A stretch of DNA of 64,000 bases from Candidatus Krumholzibacteriia bacterium (GCA_963836185.1 CAWIIQ010000001.1:1120001-1184000); one strand, 5' to 3'; counted from the stretch's first letter, positions 43,525 through 62,788 are shown. Numbers and translations: made by a program. Notes: generated from the sequence alone by a model not told the origin.

Positions 43525-43627
43525 CCTCTGCTCCTTCCCATAGGTGAACAAGAACTTAACTGCCTGCCTGGATTTACTTCTGGATGCCTGATTTATAGAT
43601 TTTCAACACCTTCACATCAACTGGATA

Positions 43628-47136: not shown

Positions 47137-47196
47137 GGCGGCAATGCTAGCAGTAATCGGGATTCCGTGCAAGAGTTGCGGAGACAGAGGGGAGGG

Positions 47197-47919
47197 TCAG
47201 ATGAACTTTTCCCTCTTCTGAAGATTGTACAGTCCCCAGAGGATAGCGATAATGCTTCCAACAGCGAGTATGATCCGGTTCTGGTATACGATCCCGGACC
47301 AGACGGCTTCAGTCATCTGGTCCGGCACCCTGAAAGGATTGAGGAAGAGGTTCCACTTGCTCTTCGAGAGGGACTCGGTGGCTATCCAGAACGCCATGCC
47401 GATGACGACCATTACAACCGCCGTCCCGTTACCGTTCCTTACGATCGTCGAGAACATGAATGAAAGGGCTCCGAGGAAGAAGATCGGGAACATCAGCTGG
47501 TAGACCATCTCGAGGATCGGCACCGATGCGAATACGACCGAGCTCAGGGCGGCGAGGACCACGAGAAGCACGAACTCGATCAGCCAGATAAGGGCCATCC
47601 TGGAGAGCCAGACCTTGTACCTGTAGTCGGGGATCCCGAAGAGTATCTCTATCATCCGTGAATCGACATCGTTCTGTATCCCGAAGGCTGTGGGGTAGAA
47701 GATCAGCAGGATTCCGGGGAAGAGGAGGATGTCAAAGACGTCATGAATGCCCGGATTGTTGTCGGAAGAGAAGAACGAGATCGCTCCCGCTGCGAGGAAG
47801 AAGATGAACGCGGCGAGCAGGAAGTATACGAACCTGTTGGCGAAGACGATCTTCAGGTTATACGAGGCTATCTTCCTCGCCGAAAAGAAAAGATTGCGTG
47901 CACGGTCAAACCTGCGCAT
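47197..47919 (-). CDS. Small ABC-2-type permease (6 TM)
   Basis: IQNDVDSRMIEILFGIP.YRYKVWLSR EAA-like coupling motif; overlaps the RND-ABC gene. Confidence 0.7.
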   Translation of the reverse strand: MRRFDRARNLFFSARKIASYNLKIVFANRFVYFLLAAFIFFLAAGAISFFSSDNNPGIHDVFDILLFPGILLIFYPTAFGIQNDVDSRMIEILFGIPDYRYKVWLSRMALIWLIEFVLLVVLAALSSVVFASVPILEMVYQLMFPIFFLGALSFMFSTIVRNGNGTAVVMVVIGMAFWIATESLSKSKWNLFLNPFRVPDQMTEAVWSGIVYQNRIILAVGSIIAILWGLYNLQKREKFI

Positions 47920-50900
47920 CAGCTTCACCTCCCGCAGCTTCCTCTATCGCTGTCCTTGCTCCGAGTATGTCGCTTCCGGATGACCTGAGCAGCCAGAGGT
48001 AGGCATCCTCGAGTGTCGGCCTCGCCTCATGCGCGTCAGGAACGGGGCTCGCGTCTGCGAGGCACCTGACCTTGATCATCTCTCCGTCTCGCATGTGATG
48101 GACTACGACATGCTCTTTTCTGATCCTCTCGAAATCTCCCGGCGGCACGCTGAAGGTCCATACCTTCCCGGCCGCCGTGGCGGTCATCTTCGTCGGTTCA
48201 TCGAGATAGAGGAGCTGGCCTCTGTTGAGCACGGCCACGCGATTGCATGAGCTGTAGATATCCTCGATGATATGCGTCGAGAAGATGACGACCCTTTCCC
48301 TGCTCAGTTCGACGAGAAGGTTGCGGAACCTGATCCTCTCACGCGGGTCGAGGCCCGCTGTCGGCTCGTCGACCACGAGGATCCTCGGGAGGTGGAGAAG
48401 GATCTGCGCGATTCCGACCCGCTGTTTCATCCCGCCCGAGAATGCGCCGATCTTTCTTTCGGCATGTTCCTCTATATGCACAGCTTCGAGGACGTAGTCG
48501 ACCATCTCACGGCGTTTCTTCTCGTCGCCGAGCCCCTTGAGTATTGCCTGGTAGTCGAGAAACTCCCTTGCTGTCATGTTCTCGTACGTCCCGAATTCCT
48601 GCGGCAGGTAACCGATCAGCCCCTGCAGCTCCTCGCGTTTCTTAGACGTGTCGATCCCGTTTATGTAGACCTTTCCATACGACTGGTCGAGGATCCCGCA
48701 GATAACCCGCATCAGTGTCGTCTTGCCCGCTCCGTTCGGGCCGAGGAGGCCGAACATCCCGCTCCCGATCTCGAGTGAGACGCGATCGAGGGCCTTGAAC
48801 TGCTGCTTGCGCTTTCCAATCAGGGGGATCATCAGCACGAGTCGGTAAAGGGCCCGGCGTATCCCGGCGAACCTGCCCTCGACCCTCGCGATGTTTATCT
48901 TCTTCCTGTGCAGCCTGCGGGAGGTCGAGAAGATCGCCGCTGCGGGAAACCAGAGGATGGCGATAAATATCACAGCAGCGAGGTTGCCCCACTTCATGTA
49001 GAAGATGACGAGGTTCACGAGGGGGAAGAGCCAGATGAAACTCTTTGAAATAGTTCTCGCGATCCGGAAACGTGACAGCTGAGCGCTCCAGCATTTCCAT
49101 GCGTATATGAGGAAGAAGAAGAGGGCGTGTGAGAGGACGAAGGCCCAGAAGAATGAAGAGAGATAGAAATAGATGAAGTAGACCATGAATCCGAGAACGG
49201 GGAGCTGCCAGAGCAGATCGCCGGCATCGCTGGTTCGTATGTCTCCGCGGCGTTCCCTGATCCTGTTCCCCTTGTTCCATTCGCGCATGAACTTCGACGG
49301 CTGGTCATATATCTTGACGAGGTTGCGCACCGTGATCGTAATAGCGCTTTTGCGGTCGATGACCTTCTCAGACGCCTTTCTCAGGCTCGCCAGGATAAAC
49401 CAGGTGACAGCCGGGACGAGAAGTACGACCGTGGCGAAGAGGGCCGATCTCCAGATCAGTGATTCGATCTTTACCTGGACAAGCCAGATGCCGAGGACTC
49501 CCGCGACCAGCTGGCCGAGCTTGATCCTGATGTCCAGGCCCCGTATCCAGGCCATGGCCGAATCGAGGCCGGAGTAGACGACAGGTATGAAAACGAGGGT
49601 GAATATGGTGCTGACGGTCAGTCCGCCTATGACAGTGATCGCAAACGGCGCCCCGATCACCGAGATCTCTTCCTCCTTGCCCATCGCCAGTGGTATCATC
49701 GCAACGATCGTCGTGATCGCTGTTATGAGGATCGGTCTGACCCTCGCGTCGCCTGCCGTTATCAGGGCCCTCGTCGTGCGGTAGCCGCGGCGCTTCAGGA
49801 TCAGGGAGTAATCGATCAGTATGATCCCGTTGTTTACGACAACACCGAGGAGTATGAGGAACCCGGTCATCGTATAAGGATCGACGATAGATGTGCGTGT
49901 AAAGATCAGGAGCCAGAGGGATCCTATCGCGGCAAGAGGGATAGTGAACATCATCACAACGGGAGTCGTCAGCGACTCGAATACCGAAGCGAGTATCATG
50001 TAGATCAGGATGAAGGCAGCGAGGATGAGGAACTTGAACTCATCGATACCGGTGTCTTCCTCCACTATCTCCACGGCCATACCCTGCGGGACGACCAGTC
50101 CGGCGATCAGTTCCTCTATCTCGAGCTCGGCAGCTTCCTGCAGGTTTCTCGAGCCGTTTATCTCATCGATGAATGAATAGGTTATCTTGACCTGCTTTTC
50201 CTGGTTGACCCTGTTGATCGATGTCATCCCCCTTGTGTATACGACATCGGTTATGTCCTCAAGGTCGACGATGGCTCCAGAAGGGGATTCAAGTGACATC
50301 TCGCGAAGTTCATCAGCGCTGCGTTCCTCGACACCGTCACTTCTTATGATGATCTCGTATTCATCCGTCCCGTCCTTGAAGACCTGTCCGGTGGAATACT
50401 CCGGCTGGAAGGAGTTGAGCTCCATGCCTATCGAATTGAGGGTCAGGCCGTGCCAGCTAAGCATCGGCATATCGAACATCAGCTGTATCTCCGGGCTGCC
50501 GGGTGTCACGTCAAAATTCGCCGATGCCGTCGAGGCGAGATTATCGACATACTCGACGAGGTTGGAGGCGAACATCGACATCGCTTCGAAATCGTTTCCC
50601 TTTACTACGATACTCTTCTGCTGTCCTCCCAGCCCGAAGAATCCTCCCATCGCTCCGCCCATTCCGCCACCGCGTCTGCCCCTGTATCTTGTGCTGTTTG
50701 ACGGTTCCTCGAACGACACATCGCCGGTCCTGAAATCATGGAGCCGCTGCCTGGCGTCGCTTTTTACCTCGTGGATACTGCGGCCGTCGATTTCAGTGTA
50801 GTCTTCCTTCATAACGAGTGTGAGACGGGCATCCTCTTCATGAACCTCGACGAAAAGGTCCTCGGTCTCAGCGATCCCGGTAAGCCTTTCCTCCATATCG

Positions 50901-52630
50901 CCGACTGCGGCATCGGTCGATTCGAGTGTCGATCCGCGCTGCATGACGAGGAAGATATCGAACGATCCCGTTTCCTCGATCGTCGAGGAGCCGATACTGA
51001 GGCTGATACATAGTATGATGCTGATGAAAAAGATGATTATCGCGCCGACTGTCGTCCGGGCAGGGTATCTCATCCCCGTCTTGAGAAGGACGTGGTAGAT
51101 CTCCATCAGTCTTCCGCCCGATGACGAAGCGGGGGTGTAGTCGTGCCTCTTTCCCCTGGAAAGGAAGTAGTGGCTGACCATCGGCACGAGCAGGAGGGCT
51201 GCCACGAGCGATACGAGAAGGGTCGATACTATCGATACACCCACATGCTTCCCGAGACTCTGCACGATGATGTTCGACGAGAATACGAAGGGGAGGAATA
51301 CCGTGATCGTAGTCGCCGTCGCAGCTACGATCGAGCGCCATACCTCGCTCACCCCCTGGACCACCGCTGTGTCGGCGTTGAGGCCCTTCGAGACGAGCCT
51401 GTATATGTTCTCCAGGACGACGACGCCGTTGTCGAGAAGCATCCCGATGGCAAGCGCTATACCGATCAGGGTCAGGCTGTTTATCGATATACCAGCAGCG
51501 TAGAAGAAGTTCATCGCGATATAGACCGAGATAGGGATCGACAGGGCGATGACGAATACGAGCCGCAGGTTCCTCAGGAAGAACCAGAGGATCACTATGG
51601 CGAGCAGTCCGCCGATCACTGCGAGCCTTACTATCAGGCTGATATTGTCCCGGATCGATTCGGCTCCGTCGTACTGGACGACGAGCTCCATCTCCTGGCT
51701 CTTTATCTCTCTGTTGATCCTTTCGACTGCCTCCAGGGCCCGGTTGGAGACATCGATCATGTTGACCATCTGGTCCTTCTTGAGGGTCAGCGAGACGGAC
51801 TCCATCCCGTTTACCCTTGTGATGCTTTCCTGCTTCTTGACTCCGAAGTAGATCTCCGCTATGTCGCCGAGCAGTACGGGACCCTCGGGATGGACGACGA
51901 TATTCTCGAGGTCGGTCAGGTCGAGATACTCGGTCACAACGTTGACGAAATATTTCCGATCCTTCTCGACAGCGTGGCCGACGAATCTGTTCGAGGCTCC
52001 GTTGCTCGATATGAGTCTCGAGATCCTCGAAGGGGTAAGTCCGTACGCTTCGATAGCGGCGTCATCGAGGACGATGTCGACCGACTTTTCGCGCCCTCCG
52101 GAGACCTCGACGTCGGAGATACCCTCGATACTTTCAAACTTCTGCACGATCTCCCGGTCGACAACCTCACGGACGCGTTCAAGTCCGCCGGTTCCTCTGA
52201 CTTCGAGCCTCATCAGCTCGTTCGATATCGACTGGACATCGAACTGGAAGACCTGGACGATATACTCTTCGGGTATCGTCGACCTTATCTCGGTGATCTT
52301 CTCCTCGAGCTTGAGGTAGGCGTACTTGACGTCGATCCCTTGTTCATACTCGATTGTTATGCTGGCGCGTCCGCGGCTGACCCAGGATTCGATCTTCTCG
52401 ATTCCCTCGAGAGTGCCCGCGGCCTCCTCGATCGGGATGACCGCTTCCTTCTCGAGTTGGACAGGATCGACGGGCCGGGAGCGGACCATCACGACGAGGT
52501 AGGGAAATTCGATGTCTGGGATAAGCTCGACGGGGAGCCGTCTCTGCGAGATGACACCCAGCATCACAAGCCCGATGAAGAGCATGCTGATAAGGGTCTT
52601 GCGGCGGATTATGAAATTGCCAGCGCTCAT
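47906..52630 (-). CDS. RND efflux permease fused to extra TM helices and a complete ABC ATPase domain (1574 aa)
   Basis: RND motifs LPVELIP, GMLLDNGVVVLEN, YMILASVFES, GVVVNNGIILID and RVRPILIT. ABC motifs GPNGAGKT, GYLPQ, FSGGMKQR, ILVVDEPTAGLDP and STH. Confidence 0.9.
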   Translation of the reverse strand: MSAGNFIIRRKTLISMLFIGLVMLGVISQRRLPVELIPDIEFPYLVVMVRSRPVDPVQLEKEAVIPIEEAAGTLEGIEKIESWVSRGRASITIEYEQGIDVKYAYLKLEEKITEIRSTIPEEYIVQVFQFDVQSISNELMRLEVRGTGGLERVREVVDREIVQKFESIEGISDVEVSGGREKSVDIVLDDAAIEAYGLTPSRISRLISSNGASNRFVGHAVEKDRKYFVNVVTEYLDLTDLENIVVHPEGPVLLGDIAEIYFGVKKQESITRVNGMESVSLTLKKDQMVNMIDVSNRALEAVERINREIKSQEMELVVQYDGAESIRDNISLIVRLAVIGGLLAIVILWFFLRNLRLVFVIALSIPISVYIAMNFFYAAGISINSLTLIGIALAIGMLLDNGVVVLENIYRLVSKGLNADTAVVQGVSEVWRSIVAATATTITVFLPFVFSSNIIVQSLGKHVGVSIVSTLLVSLVAALLLVPMVSHYFLSRGKRHDYTPASSSGGRLMEIYHVLLKTGMRYPARTTVGAIIIFFISIILCISLSIGSSTIEETGSFDIFLVMQRGSTLESTDAAVGDMEERLTGIAETEDLFVEVHEEDARLTLVMKEDYTEIDGRSIHEVKSDARQRLHDFRTGDVSFEEPSNSTRYRGRRGGGMGGAMGGFFGLGGQQKSIVVKGNDFEAMSMFASNLVEYVDNLASTASANFDVTPGSPEIQLMFDMPMLSWHGLTLNSIGMELNSFQPEYSTGQVFKDGTDEYEIIIRSDGVEERSADELREMSLESPSGAIVDLEDITDVVYTRGMTSINRVNQEKQVKITYSFIDEINGSRNLQEAAELEIEELIAGLVVPQGMAVEIVEEDTGIDEFKFLILAAFILIYMILASVFESLTTPVVMMFTIPLAAIGSLWLLIFTRTSIVDPYTMTGFLILLGVVVNNGIILIDYSLILKRRGYRTTRALITAGDARVRPILITAITTIVAMIPLAMGKEEEISVIGAPFAITVIGGLTVSTIFTLVFIPVVYSGLDSAMAWIRGLDIRIKLGQLVAGVLGIWLVQVKIESLIWRSALFATVVLLVPAVTWFILASLRKASEKVIDRKSAITITVRNLVKIYDQPSKFMREWNKGNRIRERRGDIRTSDAGDLLWQLPVLGFMVYFIYFYLSSFFWAFVLSHALFFFLIYAWKCWSAQLSRFRIARTISKSFIWLFPLVNLVIFYMKWGNLAAVIFIAILWFPAAAIFSTSRRLHRKKINIARVEGRFAGIRRALYRLVLMIPLIGKRKQQFKALDRVSLEIGSGMFGLLGPNGAGKTTLMRVICGILDQSYGKVYINGIDTSKKREELQGLIGYLPQEFGTYENMTAREFLDYQAILKGLGDEKKRREMVDYVLEAVHIEEHAERKIGAFSGGMKQRVGIAQILLHLPRILVVDEPTAGLDPRERIRFRNLLVELSRERVVIFSTHIIEDIYSSCNRVAVLNRGQLLYLDEPTKMTATAAGKVWTFSVPPGDFERIRKEHVVVHHMRDGEMIKVRCLADASPVPDAHEARPTLEDAYLWLLRSSGSDILGARTAIEEAAGGEADAQV

Positions 52631-55600
52631 CGGCTCCGATCCAGGACGGAATAGACACAGGGTATTACTATGAGTGTAAGTAAGGTCGATGTCACCAGGC
52701 CGCCGATAACCGCCAGCGCCATCGGTGAGCGGAGTGAAGCTCCTTCGCCGAATCCCAGGGTTAGGGGGAGGAGGGCGAGGATCGTCGTGGCGCTCGTCAT
52801 GATGATCGGCCGTATCCTGATCCTTCCTGCGGCTACTATCGCGTCAGCTTTCGCCATACCCTCGCGCCTGAACCTGTTGATCGCGTCGATAAGGATGATC
52901 GAATCGTTTACCGCGATGCCGACGAGCATGATGATGCCGATGTAGGCCATGATGCTCAGCGGACGGCCGAGGATGAAGAAGATCAGCACCGCGCCGACAC
53001 CGGCGAGCGGGATCGTCAGCAGGATCGCGAACGGATGGATCAGCGACTCGAACTGCGAGGCGAGGACCATGTAGACGAGTATTATCGACAGCAGAAGGGC
53101 GAACCGGAGATCGCGGAACTCCTCCTGCCTGCGGGCCTCCTCGCCTGTGATCGCGAGTCTGTAACCTTGAGGGACATCAAGTGACGCGAAGTTGCTGTTG
53201 ATCTCCCCGATGGCGTGGTCGAAGGGCCTGCCCTCGTTCTTGTGCGCCGAGACGATAGCTGCTCTCATCTGTCCGCGTCTGTTAATCTCGCGCGGGGCGG
53301 TGCCTCTTTCGAGGCGGGCAAGTTCATCGACCCGGAACTTTCTCCCCGATGAATCGATATATATCCTGTCGAGTTCCCCGATGCTCACATCGGGAAGCAT
53401 CACCGTGATGTCTGTTTTTTCTCCGCCACGGTCCCATTCTCCGGCGCTTCGTCCGGTGAGCCGGGACTCGAGCGTCCCGGTGACCTCGCCGAGGCTGACC
53501 TGGAGCATCCCCGCCCTGAGGCGGTCGACTACGACATTTATCTCTGGCCGTCCGTGCTCAAGCGACGTCTCGACATTATAGAGGTCGTCTATGCCGGCGA
53601 GCCGTCCCTTTACATCTTCAGCCATGCTCGTGAGAGTCTCGAGGTCGTCCCCCTTGATCTCGACGACGATCGGGGCGGATTCGGCCCCGAGGATCGAGCG
53701 AAGGGCTGTCTGGTCCTGTACGAGTCTTGACTCGACTCCCGGTATCGATGACAGCGTTGCTCCGAGGCCCGCCATGACCTGGCCCGAACTACGGCCGTGT
53801 CCTTCCGCAAAGCGGATCTTGACGACAGCTGTGTTCTCGTCCTGGAAGACAGAGGTCACGTCGCTGCCGATACCTGTTACCGGCCCGGCAGTGCTGAAAA
53901 GGGTCTCGATGTCGTCGCCGAAGGTGCCCCTGATCATCTCTTCGAGTCCCCTTACCGTGCCGTCTGTCCTCGTGAGGTCGGAACCTTCAGGCAGGGTGAG
54001 GTATATCGAGTACTCGTCGGCGTCGGAATCGGGAATGAACTCGCTGCCGACTATCGGCAGGAGGAGGGCCGCAATGACTACGAGCGCGACGGCTGCGATG
54101 ATGACCGTCCAGCGTTTCTCGAGGGCCTTTGCCAGGAGAGCGCCGTACCGTTCGAATTTCATTGGTTCGGCCGCAGCTGCCTTATCCTTCCCCTTCAGGA
54201 ACCTTGCGGCGAGCATCGGGATGATCAGTATCGCGACGGCGAGGGAGGAGAGAAGGGCGAATGCGACTGTCCATGCCTGATCCTTGAAGAGTTCTCCCGC
54301 GGCGCCGTGGAGGTATACTATCGGGAGGAATACGACGATCGTCGTTATCGTCGATGCCGTGATCGCGCCGCCGACCTGCGCCGTACCGGAGGCCGCTGCC
54401 TCCCTGACGCTCATCCCCGATTCGATATTTCTTACGATATTCTCGACGACGACGATGGCATTGTCGACGAGCATCCCCGCTCCGAGGGCGAGCCCCCCGA
54501 GTGTCATTATATTGAGCGACAGCCCCTTGAAGTACATCAGGTTGAAGGTCGCTACTATCGAGACAGGTATCGAGATGCTGATGATCGCCGTGGTACCTAT
54601 CCTTCTGAGGAATACGAAGAGTATCAGTATCGCGAGAAAGATCCCGATGAGCGCGGTCTGCCTGACCTCGCCTATCGAGGCGTTGATGAACTGCCCCTGA
54701 TCCTGGATGACGACGATCTCGTATCCGGGGAGGGCTTTCTCGATACGGTCGAGGGCGACGGCCAGATTCTCGCTCGCCTCAACCGTGTTGAATCTCATCT
54801 CCTTGTATATCGAAAGTCCGAGGGCCCTCGTGCCGTTGAGCCTGACGATGTTCTCCGGCTCCCTGTTGCGCAGCGAGACGTCGGCAACGTCATGGAGGTA
54901 TACAGGCGCCTTCTCGGTCGAGCTTTCAGCCTGTTGCCCAGTGCCGGATGAGAGCTGCTGGCCCTCGGCCGGTTCTTTCCAGGCGAGGATGATCTGCCTG
55001 ATATCCTCGATCGTCTCCATCTCCGAGACGCCCTTGATCAGGTACGATATCCCCATCTCGGTGACGGTGCCGCCGGAAGCCTCGACATTGTAATTCTGTA
55101 TCTCGGCCGCGATGGCATCGACGGTCAGGCCGTACGCTTCGAGCATGTACGAATCTGTGAGTACGATCACTTCCTTCGTCTCGCCGCCCGATATCTCGAC
55201 ACCTGCGATACCCTCGATACGCACCAGCTCGTTACGGATGTAGTTCTCCGCAATCCTGCGAGGGCCGTCCATGTCGGTCACTTCCGGATTGACCAGGGCT
55301 ACCGTCATCACGGGATCGGAGTTTGCGTCGTGCTGGGTTATCGTCATCTCGAGGTCGGAGTCACCCTGCCCGAAGTCGGCCGCGGCCTTCTGCAGATTGA
55401 GGAAGGCCTCGTCCATGTCCATGTCCCAGCCGTACTCGACCGTGATCCTCGCAGCACCGACTCTTATCACGGAGGATACCTCCGTAACGCCCTTCTGCGT
55501 GAAGATCATGTTCTCCATCTGATCGACGTACTGCTTCTCCATCTCCTCGGGAGGGCGCTCGCCCGCCTCGACTTCGATGAAGAGGCGCGGGTTGTTCAGG

Positions 55601-55719
55601 TCGGGGAAGAGGTCGATACCGAGTCGCTGGAACGATATCCAGCCGAGCAGGAACACCCCGAGGACGATCATCGTCACCGTGACCGGATGGTTGACGGAAA
55701 AGTCCGAAATCTTCCTCAT
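52627..55719 (-). CDS. RND efflux permease (AcrB/SwrC-like)
   Basis: LGIDLFP, NIMTLGGLALGAGMLVDNAIVVVEN, YMVLASQFES, RIRPIIMT and PMALAVIGGL motifs. Confidence 0.93.
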   Translation of the reverse strand: MRKISDFSVNHPVTVTMIVLGVFLLGWISFQRLGIDLFPDLNNPRLFIEVEAGERPPEEMEKQYVDQMENMIFTQKGVTEVSSVIRVGAARITVEYGWDMDMDEAFLNLQKAAADFGQGDSDLEMTITQHDANSDPVMTVALVNPEVTDMDGPRRIAENYIRNELVRIEGIAGVEISGGETKEVIVLTDSYMLEAYGLTVDAIAAEIQNYNVEASGGTVTEMGISYLIKGVSEMETIEDIRQIILAWKEPAEGQQLSSGTGQQAESSTEKAPVYLHDVADVSLRNREPENIVRLNGTRALGLSIYKEMRFNTVEASENLAVALDRIEKALPGYEIVVIQDQGQFINASIGEVRQTALIGIFLAILILFVFLRRIGTTAIISISIPVSIVATFNLMYFKGLSLNIMTLGGLALGAGMLVDNAIVVVENIVRNIESGMSVREAAASGTAQVGGAITASTITTIVVFLPIVYLHGAAGELFKDQAWTVAFALLSSLAVAILIIPMLAARFLKGKDKAAAAEPMKFERYGALLAKALEKRWTVIIAAVALVVIAALLLPIVGSEFIPDSDADEYSIYLTLPEGSDLTRTDGTVRGLEEMIRGTFGDDIETLFSTAGPVTGIGSDVTSVFQDENTAVVKIRFAEGHGRSSGQVMAGLGATLSSIPGVESRLVQDQTALRSILGAESAPIVVEIKGDDLETLTSMAEDVKGRLAGIDDLYNVETSLEHGRPEINVVVDRLRAGMLQVSLGEVTGTLESRLTGRSAGEWDRGGEKTDITVMLPDVSIGELDRIYIDSSGRKFRVDELARLERGTAPREINRRGQMRAAIVSAHKNEGRPFDHAIGEINSNFASLDVPQGYRLAITGEEARRQEEFRDLRFALLLSIILVYMVLASQFESLIHPFAILLTIPLAGVGAVLIFFILGRPLSIMAYIGIIMLVGIAVNDSIILIDAINRFRREGMAKADAIVAAGRIRIRPIIMTSATTILALLPLTLGFGEGASLRSPMALAVIGGLVTSTLLTLIVIPCVYSVLDRSR

Positions 55720-56768
55720 TACCTCACGACCTTTACCTTTGACCTGTTCCTCAGTGTCTCGAATCCTCTCACTACGAGCCGGTCATTGACATCGAGCCCG
55801 TCGATCACCTCGACCCAGCCGGGGTTCTCGAGGCCCGTCGTTATGATCCGCTCCTGCGCGGCGCCCTTCTGCACGATAAATACGGTCTTGCCGCGCTGCT
55901 TGATCTGTATGACATCCTTCGGGATTACGATCGCTGAGTCGCTCCTGGCGACGATGATCTCCGCCTTGACGAACATGCCCGGCCTGATCATCAGTTCCGG
56001 ATTGTCGACCTCGATCATCGCCTTGAACGATCTCGAGGCGGGGTCGAGGGCGGGGGAGACCTGTGTGACCCTGCCCGACAGGGTGTCGTCGGGAAGTGTG
56101 TAGTTCATTATGCGGACGTACTGGTCGGCGCCTGCACGGCCGAGTTCTTTGCCCGGGAGGCTGACCTCGAGCTGAAGCTTCGTGTACTCCTTCAGGCCGA
56201 GCAGCTCGACTCCGACTCCAACCTCGATACCCTTCGAGTAGTAAGGTAGGCTCGTGATGATGCCGTCGAAGGGGGCGGTGATGTTGAGCTTGGCGATACT
56301 GATCAGGGCATTGTCGTAGTTGTACTTCGCGTCTATGTAGTAACGCTCGGCAGCGGTGAGATCGGTACGGGTTATCCCGCCCTTGTCATACAGCGACTTC
56401 TGCTGCTCGAAATCAAGTTTCGCCGATTCAAGTGTGAGCTTGTGGGCGTCGACCCTGATATTGTTTACCTGTTCCTGGTCGACGAGGCGGATGATCCTCG
56501 TCCCTTTCCTGACGATATCGCCCAGGGCGAATGGCCTGCCCGTCTCAGGGTTGTCCTGGAGGTTGTACTCGCCGCCCGTCTCCGCGGTTATCGTCACTTC
56601 CATCGAGGCGTTGACCGTTCCGGTCGCAGTGACGAACTCTTCGATAGGCCCGAGGACCATCTCTTCGACCGAGACGGGGACCGCGACCTCGACGTCCACC
56701 CCATCTTCTCCGCTGTCGCAGGAGGCGAACACGGAAAGGACGATCAATAACAGTGTTATTCTCTTCAC
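55719..56768 (-). CDS. RND periplasmic adaptor (MFP), lipoprotein
   Basis: VFASC lipobox; ITAPFDGII, G.V..VSP.LDP.SR, IRPGMF and EVIDGL..DRLVV.G motifs. Confidence 0.92.
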   Translation of the reverse strand: MKRITLLLIVLSVFASCDSGEDGVDVEVAVPVSVEEMVLGPIEEFVTATGTVNASMEVTITAETGGEYNLQDNPETGRPFALGDIVRKGTRIIRLVDQEQVNNIRVDAHKLTLESAKLDFEQQKSLYDKGGITRTDLTAAERYYIDAKYNYDNALISIAKLNITAPFDGIITSLPYYSKGIEVGVGVELLGLKEYTKLQLEVSLPGKELGRAGADQYVRIMNYTLPDDTLSGRVTQVSPALDPASRSFKAMIEVDNPELMIRPGMFVKAEIIVARSDSAIVIPKDVIQIKQRGKTVFIVQKGAAQERIITTGLENPGWVEVIDGLDVNDRLVVRGFETLRNRSKVKVVR

Positions 56769-56771
56769 TTC

Positions 56772-58271
56772 TTACTCCTCTGTCAATTCAGCGGTAGAGA
56801 CAGTGACCACCGGCTGGTCGTTCTCGAAATCCCACAATGATTTTATCTTCAGGTCCAGCAGCTGTAGTTTGTAATCGATAAGCGACTGTACCTCGCTGAG
56901 CCTTGCGTTCGACAGTGACTGCCTGTACTGGCCGAGGTCCTTGCTCGTCAGGTCGCCGTTCTGGTATTTCTCGAGGTTGATCTCGTACGTCTTCTCTGCG
57001 CTCTCGACCTGTCTCCGGGCCAGATCGATCTCGAGGACGAGGTTGTCGAGCCGCCTGCACGATTCGCGGACCTCCATCTTTATCCGGTATTTCTGCTCAT
57101 CAAGACTAAGCTTGGTGCTCTCCAGGTCGAGCTCACTCGCGAGGATCGTGTTCTTCTTCTGTCCCCAGTCCCATATCGGGATGTCGAAGGCAACGCTGAC
57201 GAACTGCTCGTCGACGCGGGTCTCGTAGATATTCTCGAAATTTGAATTTGTCCCGGATGATCCCCACGAGAGGGCGAGGTTCCCCTTGAACTCGTTCGTC
57301 GCCCCGGCTCGGATAACGTTGTCGTAGGCACTGGCGATAGAGATCTCATGTTCCCGGATCTGCATCCTGTACTGGAGGCCGTGCTTCTCGGCGAACTCCA
57401 TGTCGATGCCGACCGGAGTGAAGCCGATATCTGTATCTATGTCGATATCATCCTCGATAGGGAGGCCGATGAGGTACTTGAACCGATCGACGGCGTTGGC
57501 GAGCGCAACGACGGTGCTGTTATAGCTCGATTCGCTCGAGAGCATCGTAGTCTCAGCCTGTGTGAGATCGTCGAGCTTTCCGATCCCCGCGTCGTACTTG
57601 TTCTTCATGACCCGGTAGTTCTCTCGGTCCGTCTCCATCGCGTCGCGGTTGATCTCGAGACGCATCTTCGTGGCGTAGAGACTGTAGAAGCTGTCCATCA
57701 CCGTCTGTTCGAGGTCGAGCTGTGCGATCGCTAGCCGGAGCAGGTTCGACTCGAAATTCAGCTCGAGCGACCTGAGGTCCATTCTGATCTGGTTGTACGT
57801 AAAGAGGGGCTGGTCGAACTGGAGATAAAGGGCGTTTCGGTAAGTCTCCTCGGACTGGTCGTTGATCTCGCTGTATGAATCCTTCCAGGAGAGGCGGTCA
57901 TTGAGCGAGAGTGTGCCGCCTGTCCACTTGATCGGCTGTTCAATTACCAGGAGTCCGGCGATATCGTACGATTCATAACGGTACCAGGTGGAGAAGAACT
58001 CGTCGAACTGGTTCGTGTTCCTGTACGAGATATCACCCAGCCTGAACCTGAACTGGGTCTTAAGGCTCGCTTCCCGTGCCTTCAGCCTCGCATGGCTCGA
58101 CTCGACCCCTAGCCGCGTGTGCCTGATGTTCGGGCTGTTCTCCATCGCTATTGAGAGGGCCTCGTCGAGTGACAGGATGTGCTGGGCCCGCGCTCCGGGC
58201 GGCGCGGCAGCCAGGAGCAGCACGGCGAGCATTAATATGCCCGCTCCCCTGGTAAACGGTCTCGATCTCAT
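56772..58271 (-). CDS. TolC family outer-membrane channel
   Basis: Signal peptide; LSLDEAL..A.ENSP, QPL, IPIWDWG and KYQNG..T..D motifs. Confidence 0.9.
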   Translation of the reverse strand: MRSRPFTRGAGILMLAVLLLAAAPPGARAQHILSLDEALSIAMENSPNIRHTRLGVESSHARLKAREASLKTQFRFRLGDISYRNTNQFDEFFSTWYRYESYDIAGLLVIEQPIKWTGGTLSLNDRLSWKDSYSEINDQSEETYRNALYLQFDQPLFTYNQIRMDLRSLELNFESNLLRLAIAQLDLEQTVMDSFYSLYATKMRLEINRDAMETDRENYRVMKNKYDAGIGKLDDLTQAETTMLSSESSYNSTVVALANAVDRFKYLIGLPIEDDIDIDTDIGFTPVGIDMEFAEKHGLQYRMQIREHEISIASAYDNVIRAGATNEFKGNLALSWGSSGTNSNFENIYETRVDEQFVSVAFDIPIWDWGQKKNTILASELDLESTKLSLDEQKYRIKMEVRESCRRLDNLVLEIDLARRQVESAEKTYEINLEKYQNGDLTSKDLGQYRQSLSNARLSEVQSLIDYKLQLLDLKIKSLWDFENDQPVVTVSTAELTEE

Positions 58272-58284
58272 CTGGATTTCCTTT

Positions 58285-61200
58285 CTAGCGTAATACCCAT
58301 TTGACCGCGTCGGCGATGACCTTCTCGGCATCCGATTCGTTGGTCAGCTCTATTTTAGCCTCTCCCTGGGAGATGTAGTATGAGCCGAGATAGTTCCAGC
58401 CGTCGTCGGCGCCGTTGAGGTCGAGTTCGGTCTCCTCGATCCCGTCATCGTGATATATGAGGAAGTGGAGTTTTCCGTAATTCTCCTCGTGATCCCCGCC
58501 CCTGTGTCTCCTCCAGGGGGCTGTGATTTTGGCTGCATGATAGTAGATGTCGTAATGCCCGCTCTTTTTCATGTCAGTGGTGAACGCGGCTTTGAGATCC
58601 CCTTTCCCGGCCGATATGAAATGGGCCGAACGGATCTGGTTCCCGTAGAACTTCGAGTCGATCGTCGGCTGCCATTTATTTGTCTCGCCACCCCAGAAAC
58701 GCATCCCGACATATTTCACATCTTCCTCGCGCTCGCCGCGGGGGATAAGTCTCTTCAGGAGGCTCCTCGAGGTGCCCGATGAGAAGGTGAATCCGGGGTC
58801 CTCGTTGTCGACCACTGTCTCTCCCTGCTCGACGAGGCTTACCGGCCTGTCGCTGATCCTCTCACCGTCGAACGGAACGGCCTTCTTCTTCTCATCGAGT
58901 TTCTTGGGCAGGTCGATGTCGAGGAGCACAGGCAGGTTGCGCGAGACGAGGGTGTTGATACTCAGCTTCGAGGGCTGGAAAGTCAGTACGAATCCCAGTT
59001 CTTTCGTCTCTCCGGCCTTTATCGGTACGTATTTGCTGTAATCCTCTCCCATCGTCATATTCGCGGTCATCATCCTCCGCATCCTGCCGCCCCTGCCTTC
59101 TCTGACGTTCAGGTCCATCTGCTGGAAAGTGAACTGGATAAGGCCGTCCGTATCCTCGCTGTTGGTCACGCTAAACCGGACCTGGAACTTCTCGCGCTCC
59201 CCGTCCAGAAAGCTGTAAATCTCGACCGACGACATCAGGAAGCCTGGAATGGCGATGTCGTCGTACCATCCCGCCGCTATCGACGGAAGGTCTATTCCGA
59301 GTCTTTCACTGAGGGCGGAGACAAGTTCATCTCCGGGCACGTTGCCGTGCTTGTGTTTGTCGAAGAGCTCGGCGAGCAGTGCATCGATATCTTCGCGGTC
59401 TGCGGCGCTTTCCATCATCCGGAAGAGGAAGCTTCCCTTCGATTTCAGGGCGTAGTGGGACATCTTCCTGTATTCCGGATCGAGAACGATGTCGCGCAGG
59501 CTCATCTTGGAAAGCTTGTCGTTTACCCTCTCCTCGATGGTCATCCCGTATCTCATCCTTGTCCAGGTCGAGGTGTTGTCCTCGAGTCTCGACGCGTACC
59601 ATGATTCGAGCGCCATGCCGAGCCACGGCATCTCCTTCGAATCTATCCCGTTGCGGAAGGTAAGCATATTGGGGAAGACGTTGAACGAAGGGGTCCTGCC
59701 GAACGGATCGTCCGAGCCCCAGTCCATCTGTCCGAAACTGCCAGTGAGGGTGCCGTTGACGAAGGCGGCCAGCCAGCCCGCCTGCGTCTCCACCTCGGAG
59801 ACATCCTCGTTGCTTCTGTCGTTCATCCTCTCCGTCCGGCGTTTCATGCGCCTGAAGTCGGTGGTCCTCCCCGTGATGCCTCTTTCCTGTATGAATACCA
59901 TCTCGGGCTGGACGTTCTCCTGGCTTACCGACCAGGCGTGGTGGAAGATGAAGAAATGAACCGGCACCTCGACCAGTGAGAATCTCGGGAAGGGGTACTC
60001 GAGATTGAGGTTGTTCTCGTAGGTCTGTCTGAGGTCCCTGATCATCGACTCCAGGGTATCCCCGACCTCGGTGAAAGACTCCGACCAGTAGTCATTTCCC
60101 CGGCGGCAGTAGATGTTGTACTCGGTCGAGTCGACCACTGTCGTCTGCCGCTCGAAGTCGGCGATGACAAGTGAGATCGCGGGGAGGGGGAATTCAGGCC
60201 TGAAGCTGAAGTTGCCCGGTGAGCCGGATGTCGATGCACCCTGGGAGACTGCCGTCAGCTGCGATGAAGTAGTGACGTCGAGTGAGAAATCGATGAAATC
60301 GTGTCTCCGGTCGAGCGGCCTCGAGGCGACGAAGCCCGGCCCGGCTGCCGGGTACCATATCGTTTCCGGGGTGAGCAGGACGCAGGACGGATGTATGTAC
60401 GAGAATCTCCTGCCCAGGTTGAAGAGCAGGGTCCAGTTGGGGGAATTGAGAGTCTCGATGTCTATGTCTGTGTATAGAGCGTCCTCGTTTATGACGCCTC
60501 TCCACCTGATCTCGAATGAATCCTCCGCGCCCGGTGCGAGGGGAGCCTGCGGCAGGACGGTCAGTACCTGTTCATCACGCTCATACTTAAGGGCCCCCGA
60601 CGATCCGGTAAGTTCCGTAACGGCCAGCCCCGGATTGAGGCTGAATATATAGGCGGAAAGGGGCGCTTCCGTATCGTTGCGCACAGTGATCTTCGCTGCC
60701 GCGTCGATCAGTCCGCCTTCATGCATGAGGTCGATCGCGCATGAGAGAGGTGTAGCCACCGGTCTCTCCGCGGCAGTCTCGGCCGCCGCCAGAACCCGCT
60801 CGCGCTGGTGCTCGGCGGTTCCATCTTTTCCCGTATAGACGACGATCAGCACGATGGCAAGCGCCGCGCAGGCAAGACCGAAGATACGGGCGAAGCCTGT
60901 CATGACCCTCGACTGGGGGAGCCTGCGGATCATGACGATAGTCAGGGCGATGAACGACAGCCCGAAGAGGAGGTAGATCGACCGCTGCACGAGCATGTGC
61001 GTGATATCGGCAAAGCCGGTGAACTGCGAGTAGGTCATGGGTACATTGAAGCCGATGTAATCGTAGACGTTGTGGATCTTCGGCCCGAGGTAGAAGAGTG
61101 TCATCCCTATATATCCGAGAAGCACTATGAATGTCACAGCCTGGTTGCGGATCGTGACCATCAGCAGGAAGGCGAATCCGAGGATGAAGATCAGTGTCGG

Positions 61201-61665
61201 GAAGCTTATAATGACGGGATATATGAGGTAGGCGATCCCGGCGAATGTCGTATCGGCAAAGAATACGTTGAATACGAAGCCGATGAGCAGGATCACGACA
61301 TTGAGAAGAAGGAACATCGCCAAGATCCCGACCGTCTTGCCGATGACGTAATCTGTGTTCGTCATCGAGCGCATGTAGACGACCTCGGTCGTGTCGAGCT
61401 TCTTGTCACGCTTGAGGAAGTCGGAGGCGAGGAAGACCGCGATGATCGCCTGCGCCATGTTGAGCACCAGGATGTTCATGTAGGGTATCGTCGTCGGTAA
61501 CCCCTGGAAGCCCCAGGGAGCGTGGGTGACGTTTGAGAGGGTACCGAAGTCGTAGAAACCTATGCCCGCAACGGAGAGGATCGAAAAGATCCGAAAGAAC
61601 CAGCTCCTCCACAGTGTCTTCGCCTCGAATTTCGCCACTGTGAGGATGTTGTAGACAGATATCAT
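58285..61665 (-). CDS. ABC-2-type permease fused to a large ectodomain (M1-aminopeptidase-like without HEXXH) and a C-terminal golvesin-like domain
   Basis: AKFE.K.LWR start, RDKKLDT.EV...R.MTN..YV.GK..G and about 7 TM helices; LNPGL.V, PE..WYP and YPF.R.SLVEVP motifs; VDN.D.GF...GHYDIY...WNYLG.Y...VIADAVKW. Confidence 0.8.
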   Translation of the reverse strand: MISVYNILTVAKFEAKTLWRSWFFRIFSILSVAGIGFYDFGTLSNVTHAPWGFQGLPTTIPYMNILVLNMAQAIIAVFLASDFLKRDKKLDTTEVVYMRSMTNTDYVIGKTVGILAMFLLLNVVILLIGFVFNVFFADTTFAGIAYLIYPVIISFPTLIFILGFAFLLMVTIRNQAVTFIVLLGYIGMTLFYLGPKIHNVYDYIGFNVPMTYSQFTGFADITHMLVQRSIYLLFGLSFIALTIVMIRRLPQSRVMTGFARIFGLACAALAIVLIVVYTGKDGTAEHQRERVLAAAETAAERPVATPLSCAIDLMHEGGLIDAAAKITVRNDTEAPLSAYIFSLNPGLAVTELTGSSGALKYERDEQVLTVLPQAPLAPGAEDSFEIRWRGVINEDALYTDIDIETLNSPNWTLLFNLGRRFSYIHPSCVLLTPETIWYPAAGPGFVASRPLDRRHDFIDFSLDVTTSSQLTAVSQGASTSGSPGNFSFRPEFPLPAISLVIADFERQTTVVDSTEYNIYCRRGNDYWSESFTEVGDTLESMIRDLRQTYENNLNLEYPFPRFSLVEVPVHFFIFHHAWSVSQENVQPEMVFIQERGITGRTTDFRRMKRRTERMNDRSNEDVSEVETQAGWLAAFVNGTLTGSFGQMDWGSDDPFGRTPSFNVFPNMLTFRNGIDSKEMPWLGMALESWYASRLEDNTSTWTRMRYGMTIEERVNDKLSKMSLRDIVLDPEYRKMSHYALKSKGSFLFRMMESAADREDIDALLAELFDKHKHGNVPGDELVSALSERLGIDLPSIAAGWYDDIAIPGFLMSSVEIYSFLDGEREKFQVRFSVTNSEDTDGLIQFTFQQMDLNVREGRGGRMRRMMTANMTMGEDYSKYVPIKAGETKELGFVLTFQPSKLSINTLVSRNLPVLLDIDLPKKLDEKKKAVPFDGERISDRPVSLVEQGETVVDNEDPGFTFSSGTSRSLLKRLIPRGEREEDVKYVGMRFWGGETNKWQPTIDSKFYGNQIRSAHFISAGKGDLKAAFTTDMKKSGHYDIYYHAAKITAPWRRHRGGDHEENYGKLHFLIYHDDGIEETELDLNGADDGWNYLGSYYISQGEAKIELTNESDAEKVIADAVKWVLR

Positions 61666-61717
61666 CTCGTCAGCCTTTCATCGGCGGGTGGGGTTAGACG
61701 GCCCGGCCGCTTGTATC

Positions 61718-62599
61718 TCAGTTTTCCGACTGGTTCTCCATGAAATATACGTAGGCATGCTCAAGGTTCGGCTCGACCTCTTCGCCCGGCCACCTGCCCG
61801 TGTTGTCGGCTACGACATGGACCTCCCAGCCGTCGTCGGCAGGAACAGTCGATATCACGGGGAATGTAGTCTTGATCTCTTCGAGTTCGGTGTCGAGCGC
61901 GCGGATCTTCCATGCCTTGCCGCGGGCCATGTCGACCAGCCCGTCCGGCGAGCCGCGGAAGACGACGCTGCCCCGGTCGAGCAGGGCCATGTTGTGGCAT
62001 GAGCTCGATATGTCGCCCACTATATGTGTAGAGAGGATTATCGCGATGTCCTTCTGGCCCATGTCGGCCAGCAGGTTCCTGAACCTGATACGCTCCTCGG
62101 GATCGAGGCCGGTTGTCGGCTCGTCGACGACTATGATCTTCGGATCGCCGATAAGCGCCTGGGCGATCCCTAGCCTGCGCTTCATCCCGCCGGAGAGCTT
62201 GTTGGCCAGCCTGTCACGCACGTCGTAGAGGCCGACCTGCTCGAGCATCTCGCCTACTTCCTTCGTCCTTTTCTTTTTGTCCTTGAGACCGGCAAGGCGC
62301 GCAACGTAGTCGAGGAACTCCCACGTCGTGAGCTTTGAGAAGAACCTGAATTCCTGGGGGAGGTATCCGAGCATCGATCTTATCTCGCGCCGGTTCCTCT
62401 GCAGGTCGAAATCGTTTACTCTTACGGTGCCGCCTGTCGGCTTCATCAGTGTGACCAGGATACGCATCAGGGTCGTCTTGCCCGCGCCATTCGGCCCGAG
62501 CAGGCCGAACATCCCGCTCCCTATATCGAGGTCCACACCAGACAGGGCAGTCGTACCGCCCTTGTAGGTCTTGCTCAGTCCTTCGACCGATATTTTCAT
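61718..62599 (-). CDS. ABC transporter ATP-binding protein
   Basis: GPNGAGKT, GYLPQ, LSGGMKRR, IIVVDEPT.GLDP and STH motifs. Confidence 0.95.
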   Translation of the reverse strand: MKISVEGLSKTYKGGTTALSGVDLDIGSGMFGLLGPNGAGKTTLMRILVTLMKPTGGTVRVNDFDLQRNRREIRSMLGYLPQEFRFFSKLTTWEFLDYVARLAGLKDKKKRTKEVGEMLEQVGLYDVRDRLANKLSGGMKRRLGIAQALIGDPKIIVVDEPTTGLDPEERIRFRNLLADMGQKDIAIILSTHIVGDISSSCHNMALLDRGSVVFRGSPDGLVDMARGKAWKIRALDTELEEIKTTFPVISTVPADDGWEVHVVADNTGRWPGEEVEPNLEHAYVYFMENQSEN

Positions 62600-62658: not shown

Positions 62659-62788
62659 GTCAATCATAAATATGAAACGGTTACAGGAATAATGCGCAAA
62701 GTGCTAAAAAATCGGCAAAATCTGCCGGATGTGCAGTTTAATGCATCGGTGCTGTGGCCTCAACATAAAAGGGGGCTTCAGGGGACCT

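Follow-up and report, generated by a model that had tools for sequence, protein, structure and literature searches.

Organization of the gene cluster

The window, which is the whole 64,000-nt stretch of DNA analyzed here, is free of N and contains seven co-oriented ORFs at positions 47197–62599, all on the minus strand and separated by tiny gaps or overlaps (52, -47, 3, -1, -4, and -23 bp between successive longest ORFs). In cluster order, they encode a free ABC ATPase (NBD1; 61718–62599, 293 aa; ABC_tran, E 1e-31), a large permease (58285–61665, 1126 aa) made up of a type V ABC membrane domain and an ectodomain predicted to be periplasmic, a TolC family outer-membrane factor (56772–58331, 519 aa as the longest ORF; OEP, E 7e-40), a periplasmic adaptor (MFP; 55719–56768, 349 aa; HlyD), RND permease 1 (RND1; 52627–55719, 1030 aa; ACR_tran, E 2e-212), RND permease 2 (RND2) fused in frame to a second ABC ATPase (NBD2; 47906–52630, 1574 aa; ACR_tran and ABC_tran), and a small 6-helix permease (47197–47928, 243 aa as the longest ORF). 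The Pfam scan additionally detected Golvesin_C and a weak Peptidase_M1 match in the large permease, and assigned no family to the small permease of the window. Both the compact co-oriented arrangement and the gene order agree with the preliminary description of this locus. The channel gene likely starts later, at 58271, as does the small permease gene, at 47919 (240 aa), in each case on the basis of a ribosome-binding-site-like purine run. Scans for promoters (5 against 8.1) and terminators (18 against 11.2) gave results near chance.

Two flanking genes were considered as further components and rejected. Among the loci listed, a downstream patatin-Omp85 gene is adjacent in same-genus loci and an upstream acyl-CoA ligase gene is a neighbor up to the family level; both are absent at L001, L006, L085, L087, and L088.

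The tripartite RND pump

RND1, which shows 12 hydrophobic peaks in its hydropathy profile, and RND2 both possess a full-length ACR_tran domain and the AcrB fold. As in HAE-1 tripartite pumps, they are encoded alongside an outer-membrane factor and an adaptor, the latter scoring 174 bits against TIGR01730 (cut-off 94.9) and carrying what we take to be a lipoprotein-type signal with Cys17. MdtABC-TolC type HAE-1 pumps likewise place two tandem RND paralogues with full ACR_tran domains behind one adaptor, and the model of the fusion protein aligns with the AcrB fold at Z 35.4 and with the MdtB fold at Z 30.8 (VIA-align). However, RND1 falls far below the NCBIfam cut-offs for MdtB and MdtC (374 vs. 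1584 and 398 vs. 1774 bits), and, unlike in MdtABC, one RND bears an ABC ATPase and the operon includes ABC permeases and its own channel. Among the relatives sampled, the nearest ones without a fusion are two plain tandem RNDs encoded at C1:139620–147337 of this genome, as placed by a quick tree without bootstrap (the ATPase tree discussed below is of the same kind).

Equivalents of AcrB residues D407, E414, R971, and T978 are invariant in RND2 across 96 of 96 aligned proteins and are also found in RND1; the TM4 Asp of RND2 is D400. Unlike in the AcrB proton-relay triad, the Asp408 and Lys940 positions are occupied by Asn in RND2 (94/96 and 95/96, respectively) and in RND1 too; D408 and K940 are each described as essential in AcrB, and ion coupling of the RNDs at this locus is therefore an assumption. 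Of the four stand-alone RNDs of this genome that could be aligned, three show the same Asn pattern and the fourth lacks even the first Asp; the idea that the RND lost its ion coupling in adapting to ATP was rejected on these grounds. An option put forward earlier, that ATP powers the RND, finds no support, since the TM4 Asp, TM11 Arg, and Thr do not vary and stand-alone RNDs of the same genome share the Asp408 to Asn and Lys940 to Asn replacements.

The RND::ABC-ATPase fusion

Pfam places ACR_tran (residues 5–1020) and ABC_tran (residues 1282–1425) on a single 1574-aa chain. For fusion residues 950–1400, each of the 120 homologues listed has PF00873 as well as PF00005, with a coverage of this region of at least 97%, in a search that by design is unable to return split forms; in the homologous loci examined, the RND/ATPase junction was nowhere split. 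A 2817-base contig from a related strain, which differs at 200 positions and has no gaps, spans the junction, and overlapping gap-free contigs carry on from there through the ATPase. The fusion reported in the preliminary description is thereby borne out, with neither separately encoded halves nor a stop codon or other break in the linker being encountered. In three same-genus pairs, dN/dS was 0.11–0.12 for the RND, 0.16 for the linker, and 0.06–0.08 for the ATPase. Judging from these sequence comparisons, purifying selection acts on the junction, which has persisted through a rearrangement of gene order.

Although almost every named source is a metagenome-assembled genome, and some homologues (L090 and L093) are broken elsewhere in the fused gene, an assembly or sequencing artefact as the origin of the fused reading frame is refuted, for all practical purposes, by the 214 fused proteins counted, the independent contig over the junction, the linker dN/dS, and the presence of the first ATPase strand within the linker. 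The fusion is already apparent in automatic annotation, where JGI names give AcrB and ABC ATPase together. Searches with the linker yielded no match in plasmids or in 301 genomes from the family of G591 (a set without a positive control), and the ESM Atlas added nothing; a search for RNA holders listed none.

The free and fused ATPases

The free ATPase contains Walker A, Q-loop, signature, Walker B, and H-switch motifs, and its best NCBIfam match, drrA, lies under the drrA cut-off. In the fused ATPase, K1303, Q1344, S1398, D1421, E1422, D1428, and H1453 are invariant in 96 of 96 aligned proteins, all of which have Tyr or Phe at the A-loop Tyr1108 position; E1422 is the Walker B Glu. When the 214 fused proteins (those >1350 aa among 232 homologues listed) were scanned, Walker A was found in 214, the signature in 210, Walker B and the H-switch in 211 each, and the Q-loop in 208. 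The cluster thus encodes two ATPases with complete catalytic motifs, as in a type V ABC transporter. The fused ATPase shares a subfamily with permease-docking ATPases and has an invariant Q-loop region; its model matches NosF at Z 25.3, as one of many ATPases matched, and the alignment of complete ATPase chains with the range 741–1197 of the fusion model begins at the first residues of these chains (VIA-align).

RND2 TM12 is followed by an extra predicted transmembrane hairpin (49370–49531, residues 1034–1087; model helices and hydropathy), the first beta-strand of the ATPase with Tyr1108 (49307–49336; a strand in the model), a stretch of about 170 aa inserted after strand 1 and before strand 2 (48800–49306; predicted structure), and the ATPase core (47972–48799, residues 1278–1553). 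The insertion is absent from the free ATPase. Its model shows one amphipathic helix, four long ones that are predicted to be membrane-embedded, and a further helix; the four membrane helices are a prediction only, since hydropathy finds only two peaks in the window protein and 0–5 in homologues. All 33 fused ATPases in the tree, from both of the forms described below, constitute one clade (SH-aLRT 99), on which grounds independent origins of the two fusion forms were rejected. The free ATPases of the long and short forms do not constitute one clade in the same tree.

The permeases and the ectodomain

The large permease (AlphaFold model pLDDT 88.1) has a membrane domain at approximately residues 1–250, plus a seventh helix (6 hydrophobic peaks; about 7 helices in the model). 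This domain matches NosY at Z 17.9 (residues 5–249), the Pmt exporter at Z 16.0 (residues 1–250), ABCG2 at Z 14.9, and Wzm at Z 10.4, placing it in the type V (ABCG/ABCA/Wzm-type) membrane fold; with 6–7 helices, the permeases of the cluster are distinct from the 4+4 helix MacB/FtsX (type VII) kind. A single-sequence search of the PDB with the large permease was without match.

The ectodomain, which the first description had already noted as large, spans about 840 aa and was found to comprise an M1-aminopeptidase-fold region (59266–60786, about residues 294–800; Foldseek E 1e-18 to IRAP, VIA Z 22.4 to ERAP1) and a C-terminal Golvesin_C/CBM35-like domain (58288–58833; Pfam E 5e-12). The latter matches the xanthan lyase C-terminal domain 6f2p (E 8e-8; Z 16.0, rmsd 2.1) and CBM35 chains (Z 10–12), and ESM Atlas matches of the ectodomain bear only "xanthan lyase family" or hypothetical names. 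The zinc motif HEXXH was found neither in the large permease of the window nor in the operon permeases of the loci scanned, and an active peptidase in the ectodomain was rejected on this ground; HExxH occurs in one of 120 listed large-permease homologues, at residue 311, outside the catalytic region. The M1-fold region is thus likely to be catalytically dead.

Of the small-permease homologues scanned, 14/24 match ABC2_membrane families, four of them above cut-off, and the short-form partner, which matches the window family at E 8e-21, is above cut-off for ABC2_membrane_2. By way of its homologues, then, the small permease appears to be of the ABC-2 type; a profile search of the PDB returned implausible BCL6 matches only. 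In a stand-alone 13-helix permease::M1 protein (L005), the second membrane repeat together with the ectodomain aligns with the large permease (probability 92.5), and the first repeat aligns weakly with the small permease (E 0.014, probability 3%), which fits one permease split into two chains. Both permeases keep what is presumably a coupling-helix-like motif. Complex prediction with both membrane domains, the linker, and the fused ATPase gave a median of 0.50, compared with 0.60 for a control in which the large permease was replaced, and so speaks neither for nor against assembly.

Distribution and the two forms of the cluster

The cluster was found across several bacterial phyla. Thirteen of the 21 long-form loci contain the complete set of seven genes, arranged as in the window, and the remaining eight are cut by contig ends with the order kept. 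New here is a second form, to which the cluster of Ca. Hinthialibacter belongs, whose genes follow a different order and whose linker is short; 14 of its 18 loci have all seven genes in the second order, two are cut, and two are lone second copies. In alignments, the short form lacks the extra transmembrane hairpin after TM12; the M1 fold is present in both forms, and no CBM-like domain was detected in the short one. Separate RND and ATPase genes with variable synteny had been named in advance as an argument against a single system: gene order does differ between the two lineages, but all seven genes are kept.

In a Bacteroidota sample, the fused gene and the large permease occur in the same 4 of 401 genomes, so that loci of this type, which had been suggested for this phylum, do exist there but are patchy. 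The two genes occur together in 16 of 21 relatives (three have neither, two the permease only) and in 23 of 31 genomes around G023 (seven have neither, one a partial permease match only). This co-occurrence and the conserved gene set uphold the parts originally proposed, namely two permeases, two ATPases, and a two-RND tripartite pump. G444 and G428 contain a second fused gene without adjoining permease, adaptor, or channel; such lone second copies were seen in 2 of 23 short-form genomes, both of which also hold an operon-type copy beside a large permease. In a generic ATPase pattern scan of genome contigs, fusions made up three of the 80 loci listed (L001, L002, and L006).

Comparison with known transporters

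NosDFY and the Pmt exporter, the top matches of the large permease membrane domain, nevertheless share only 12–14% identity with it, and we know of no link of either to an RND, an adaptor, or an outer-membrane channel. In NosDFY, ATP is coupled to a large periplasmic subunit, as outlined in a review (PMC13685413). MacAB-TolC, YbhFSR, and type 1 secretion systems are described as similarly joining an ATP-driven inner-membrane unit to an adaptor and an outer-membrane factor (PMC8277102), although in these the ABC transporter itself partners the adaptor and no RND is involved, whereas the adaptor here is of the RND type (TIGR01730) and, in the long form, precedes two RNDs. The gate helix of Wzm-Wzt/TarGH is likewise described as an ATPase extension between strands 1 and 2, near the membrane (PMC6379404). 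Here, short-form proteins have an extension of about 45 aa and long-form proteins one of about 170 aa that includes predicted membrane helices, the likeness to Wzt being one of site only, and the Wzm match of the large permease is modest (below NosY and Pmt).

TC 3.A.1.145 (Myxococcus Q1D520), which is itself assigned by bioinformatics only, is reported to have an M1 domain after its ABC-2 membrane domain (PMC3924187). It resembles the present system in the position of M1 C-terminal to the ABC-2 domain, in homology to the 13-helix L005 member, and in a related ATPase subfamily. Unlike this single chain of ~13 helices, however, the permease here is in two chains of 6 and about 7 helices, lacks HEXXH, has an added CBM35-like domain (long form), and is accompanied by two different ATPases, one of them RND-fused.

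Every part of the cluster belongs to a known family, and the novelty is one of architecture. A literature search of listings drawn mainly from open-access papers found no description of an RND::ABC fusion. A 2021 review has all characterized RND pumps using proton or sodium motive force and treats RND cooperation with inner-membrane transporters as synergy of separate proteins (PMC8277102).

Proposed mechanism and alternatives

It is highly probable that one fusion gene physically tethers a type V ABC transporter to a two-RND/adaptor/channel pump, and likely, as far as sequence can indicate, that two transporter classes normally described separately work here as one tethered export machine. 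The chances are about even that this machine operates in full as a two-step export relay. In such a relay, the small and large permeases would pair as membrane halves, with the free and fused ATPases docking on them, and RND1 and RND2 would form a heterotrimer as MdtB and MdtC do, joined by the adaptor and channel. ATP hydrolysis would shift an amphipathic substrate to the outer leaflet or the periplasm, where the dead-peptidase ectodomain may then keep it beside the RND entrance, and the RND, presumed still to be cation-coupled via the TM4 Asp and TM11 Arg, would drive it through the channel. Counted against the relay are NosY as the closest membrane-domain match, Asn at the D408 and K940 positions of both RNDs, the lone fused copies in G444 and G428, the separate placement of the free ATPases, and the weak alignment between the small permease and the first repeat. 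In addition, the fused ATPase need not dock on the permeases, since one free ATPase gene can suffice, as at the stand-alone permease::M1 locus L005 and in LptB2FG, where a single ATPase gene serves two permeases (PMC8386196).

The tethered ABC transporter could instead move nothing across the membrane and serve as a mechanical motor or sensor, its ATP cycles moving the ectodomain or pulling RND2 to capture a periplasmic substrate, or to load, gate, or help drive the RND; this reading is rather unlikely but has several observations in its favor. These include the NosY and NosF matches, the size of the ectodomain, Asn at the D408 and K940 positions, and the insertion at the site of the Wzt gate helix, which is described as moving about 8 Å upon ATP binding (PMC6379404). 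The NosDFY review likewise presents an ATP-driven conformational change of the periplasmic subunit and no structural evidence for sulfur transport (PMC13685413). On the other hand, the Pmt exporter match nearly equals that of NosY, the short form is without the extra membrane helices, and the Asn pattern of the stand-alone RNDs argues against an adaptation to ATP. Improbable, too, is a new class of trans-envelope machine whose attached ABC module would couple ATP hydrolysis mechanically to the RND cycle (an ATP-gated or partly ATP-driven RND), with cargo set by interchangeable dead-peptidase receptors encoded elsewhere in the genome.

A further arrangement, which we consider quite unlikely, would have the fused ATPases pair with each other, at two RND2 per trimer, and act on the RND, leaving a free-ATPase homodimer to serve the permeases. 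MdtBC is a heterotrimer with a 2:1 stoichiometry, and the lone second fused copies would be in keeping with such pairing, as would the ability of heterodimeric permeases to manage with one ATPase gene (LptB2FG; PMC8386196). However, the fused ATPase falls in the subfamily of permease-docking ATPases with its Q-loop region invariant, the fused gene and the large permease show tight co-occurrence, and the genomes with lone copies also hold the operon-type copy. Slightly more doubtful still is a fusion that only co-localizes or co-assembles two transporters acting independently on different substrates; free-standing relatives do exist for both the RND half and the ABC half, but no junction split was seen, and the junction, under purifying selection, has survived rearrangement of the gene order.

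For the two-step relay, the substrate would most likely be a peptide-containing or lipid-linked compound, either of the envelope or secreted, given that both forms retain the M1 fold and the CBM-like domain is undetected in the short form. A conserved covalent RND::ABC link would represent either a hard-wired hand-over or two energy sources in one machine, and the hand-over of substrate from an inner-membrane transporter to an RND, a long-standing question, would become testable in one purifiable complex. The cluster also provides a context for the uncharacterized permease::M1 family.

The operon and its fused protein

Seven co-oriented ORFs occupy the minus strand at 47197-62599, overlapping or spaced by at most 52 bp, and agree in number, order and size with the preliminary description: a free ABC ATPase (293 aa), a large permease with an ectodomain (1126 aa), an outer-membrane factor, an RND-type adaptor, an RND (RND1, 1030 aa), a second RND fused to an ABC ATPase (RND2::ATPase, 1574 aa) and a small permease (~240 aa). 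Pfam and NCBIfam identify the free ATPase, outer-membrane factor, adaptor and RND1, and place ACR_tran at residues 5-1020 and ABC_tran at residues 1282-1425 of the 1574-aa protein; neither window permease itself has an ABC2 match in Pfam. A patatin-POTRA-Omp85 gene (44941-47172, minus strand) lies 24 bp downstream and, among the loci shown, adjoins same-genus operons only. Further on, 42367-43551 (minus strand) encodes a predicted lipoprotein of 394 aa without a Pfam family; N-termini resembling its own (unaligned) occur close to the operon end at two other loci, L084 and L088. A terminator-like hairpin at 62713-62727 (minus strand), situated between the operon's first gene and that for an acyl-CoA ligase, is a weak candidate because it is one among 18 consensus matches.

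The RND::ATPase fusion is real. Both domains, with at least 97% coverage, were present in one chain in all 120 homologues among the matches listed for residues 950-1400, a search from which split forms could not emerge; six-frame genome searches can show them. Such searches detected the RND-to-ATPase linker in 25 of 151 genomes of the window's phylum. In 23 of these it sits in an open frame of 1403-1872 aa; of the remaining two, one is interrupted by a contig end and one by a frameshift close to residue 787. A Bacteroidota sample gave 4 of 401 genomes, every frame exceeding 1570 aa; loci of this kind do occur in Bacteroidota, as the preliminary description had it, with a patchy distribution. 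A split junction was not seen in any of these 151 and 401 genomes. Gene order differs between two forms of the operon, both of which retain the full set of seven genes. Homologues with breaks have them away from the junction, inside RND2 (L090), in RND1 (L085) or at an assembly gap in the ATPase (L093). A break in the linker itself, which had also been considered, was not encountered: in a related strain the junction is spanned by one gap-free 2817-base contig, and dN/dS against three same-genus orthologues is 0.16 for the linker, 0.11-0.12 for the RND and 0.06-0.08 for the ATPase. The catalytic ATPase residues are all invariant in 96 of 96 aligned proteins of the long form (operons of the window's type), and ATPase motifs are matched in 208-214 of 214 fusions, long and short forms together.

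In the Bacteroidota sample the fused gene and the large permease occur in the same four of 401 genomes. Among 21 relatives, 16 have both, three neither and two the large permease alone, the latter being genomes 80-84% complete in 340-360 contigs; among 31 genomes around G023, 23 have both, seven neither and one a partial large-permease match. These counts are descriptive, since kin are not independent.

Two forms and their origin

By source name, long-form hosts belong to Krumholzibacteriota, KSB1, Calditrichota, Bacteroidota, Latescibacterota, Gemmatimonadota and Chlorobi, with a divergent branch in Acidobacteriota. To judge by the nearest named homologues, the window itself probably comes from a member of Krumholzibacteriota. 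At 13 of 21 long-form loci the set of seven is complete and ordered as in the window, one of these loci having an insertion of 3.9 kb; the other eight keep the order but are cut by contig ends. The short form, first met at locus L002 and found in 23 of the 31 genomes around G023, has a fused protein of ~1390-1470 aa and the order adaptor, free ATPase, small permease, RND1, large permease, fusion, channel; one close homologue bears the source name Ca. Hinthialibacter. Its 18 loci comprise 14 complete, two cut and two lone second copies (L117:9661-13935 in G444 and L109:2928-7226 in G428) neither of which adjoins a permease, adaptor or channel gene; the G444 copy comes after a gene for an ECF-type sigma factor and two uncharacterised ones.

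Both forms share one origin. A quick tree was built from 71 ATPases: the window, nine long-form and nine short-form loci, 14 hand-picked database fusions and 21 free ATPases. In it the 33 fused domains group together as a single clade (SH-aLRT 99); the free ATPases of the two forms fall in separate clades. In a quick RND tree (n=35), RND1 (11 rows) and RND2 (19 rows) each make up a clade of their own. With just five stand-alone RNDs in the sample, the sisters of RND1 and RND2 are the pair encoded by an adaptor-RND-RND operon in the window's own genome, G000 (C1:139620-147337; supports 87 and 99), near which no ABC ATPase was found among surrounding ORFs of at least 230 aa. The simplest history would be a single grafting of an ABC module onto an ordinary tandem-RND pump, and the unfused operon constitutes a natural control.

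Energy coupling of the RNDs

AcrB requires D407, D408, K940 and R971 (PMC8277102, section 5.1.5). In RND2 the equivalents of D407, E414, R971 and T978 (AcrB numbering) are invariant, with Asn at the D408 and K940 positions; RND1 has the same pattern, often with an extra Asp next to the K940 position. Of the four stand-alone RNDs of G000 that could be aligned, three share the pattern and one is without the first Asp; two more did not align at TM10-11. The pattern is therefore a subfamily trait, and neither evidence of lost ion coupling nor proof of coupling. A stand-alone RND at G000 C2:67509-70592 has Thr-Asn where the two TM4 aspartates would be.

Anatomy of the fused protein

AlphaFold modelling of residues 355-1554 (pLDDT 80.2) places, after the RND, a helical hairpin (residues 1034-1087), the first ATPase strand (1099-1108), an insertion of ~170 residues with four long helices, some but not all backed by hydropathy, and the ATPase core from residue 1278. 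The fused ATPase aligns structurally with 4yer (Z 27.4, rmsd 3.0, 262 aligned); known ATPase chains align whole, from their first residues, and the first strand is therefore part of the ATPase fold. As the added helices are even in number, the ATPase is predicted to stay cytoplasmic. The A-loop lies 22 residues from Walker A in the free ATPase; among 208 fusions the distance is 180-219 residues in 156, 60-79 in 21 and another value in four, with no motif match in 27. The short form has a ~45-aa extension at the same ATPase site and no added membrane helices. In Wzt, strands 1 and 2 are linked by a lengthened segment that makes up a gate helix, a proposed recruiter of lipid-linked substrate (PMC6379404); the fused ATPase resembles Wzt in the site of its extension. 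In the protein clusters of P0303 and P0306, small permeases of 240 and 267 aa are grouped with fused-gene representatives whose sequences do not include them, and P0437 combines a portion of the fused ATPase with a small permease that has deletions; read-through or poor gene calling may account for these cases.

The permeases

In the model of the large permease (1126 aa, pLDDT 88.1) the membrane domain is of type V, matching NosY (Z 17.9) and the Pmt exporter (Z 16.0). The rest comprises an M1-aminopeptidase fold that matches ERAP1 (Z 22.4) and lacks HEXXH, a beta-sandwich, and a C-terminal domain resembling xanthan lyase and CBM35 domains; the short-form large permease of L002 (922 aa) had no Golvesin_C match. 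ABC-2::M1 fusions with 13 helices are classed, on bioinformatic grounds, as TC 3.A.1.145 (PMC3924187). A Massilia MAG (L005:13874-18345) encodes a stand-alone single ATPase and a 13-helix permease::M1 protein, its ectodomain likewise without HEXXH; the second repeat and ectodomain align to the large permease (probability 92.5), and the first repeat weakly to the small permease (E 0.014). The latter, single-copy in G000, is ABC-2-like, as judged through its homologues. An ATPase of the same subfamily (G000 C1:332779-335314; 44% identity to the free ATPase) lies beside a permease ORF (at most 592 aa) whose ABC2 matches are weak, and no RND is nearby.

Proposed mechanism

The individual parts are known, but the operon architecture fits no described class, and no description of an RND::ABC fusion was found in searches of the openly accessible literature. 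The fused ATPase domain is conserved, appears to be active and belongs to a permease-docking subfamily; the operon also encodes two permeases and another ATPase. Docking would quite probably tie the ABC transporter to the RND trimer. The reading that we favour, with about an even chance of being correct, is a hard-wired relay in which the ABC transporter would deliver substrate, the dead-peptidase domain would hold it and the RND would eject it. The main rival, a motor or sensor without a substrate path, by analogy with NosDFY (PMC13685413), is possible but rather unlikely. A homodimer of the fused ATPase acting on the RND appears improbable, and mere co-localisation of two transporters slightly more so.

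Possible spare large-permease subunits

G000 has a second, frameshifted large-permease gene (C2:299839-303206; L114:5840-9207) with neither a small permease nor a same-subfamily ATPase beside it. Its neighbours, named partly from Pfam matches, are a kdsD-like SIS-CBS gene on one side and, on the other, genes for a lipid A acyltransferase, LptC and an lptB-like ATPase, the run as a whole including kdsA/kdsD-like genes. Orphan paralogues occupy this site in seven of nine genomes examined and lie elsewhere in two, and in a set of 31 genomes they were detected only in those also having an operon-type permease. They are intact in relatives and retain a coupling-helix-like motif. The setting hints at envelope chemistry, and the paralogues would fit exchangeable receptor subunits; both are leads. 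Within the genus, two orphan classes at the same site share 31-34% identity with each other, against 73-80% among operon copies, and one genome, G003, carries both classes on separate contigs.
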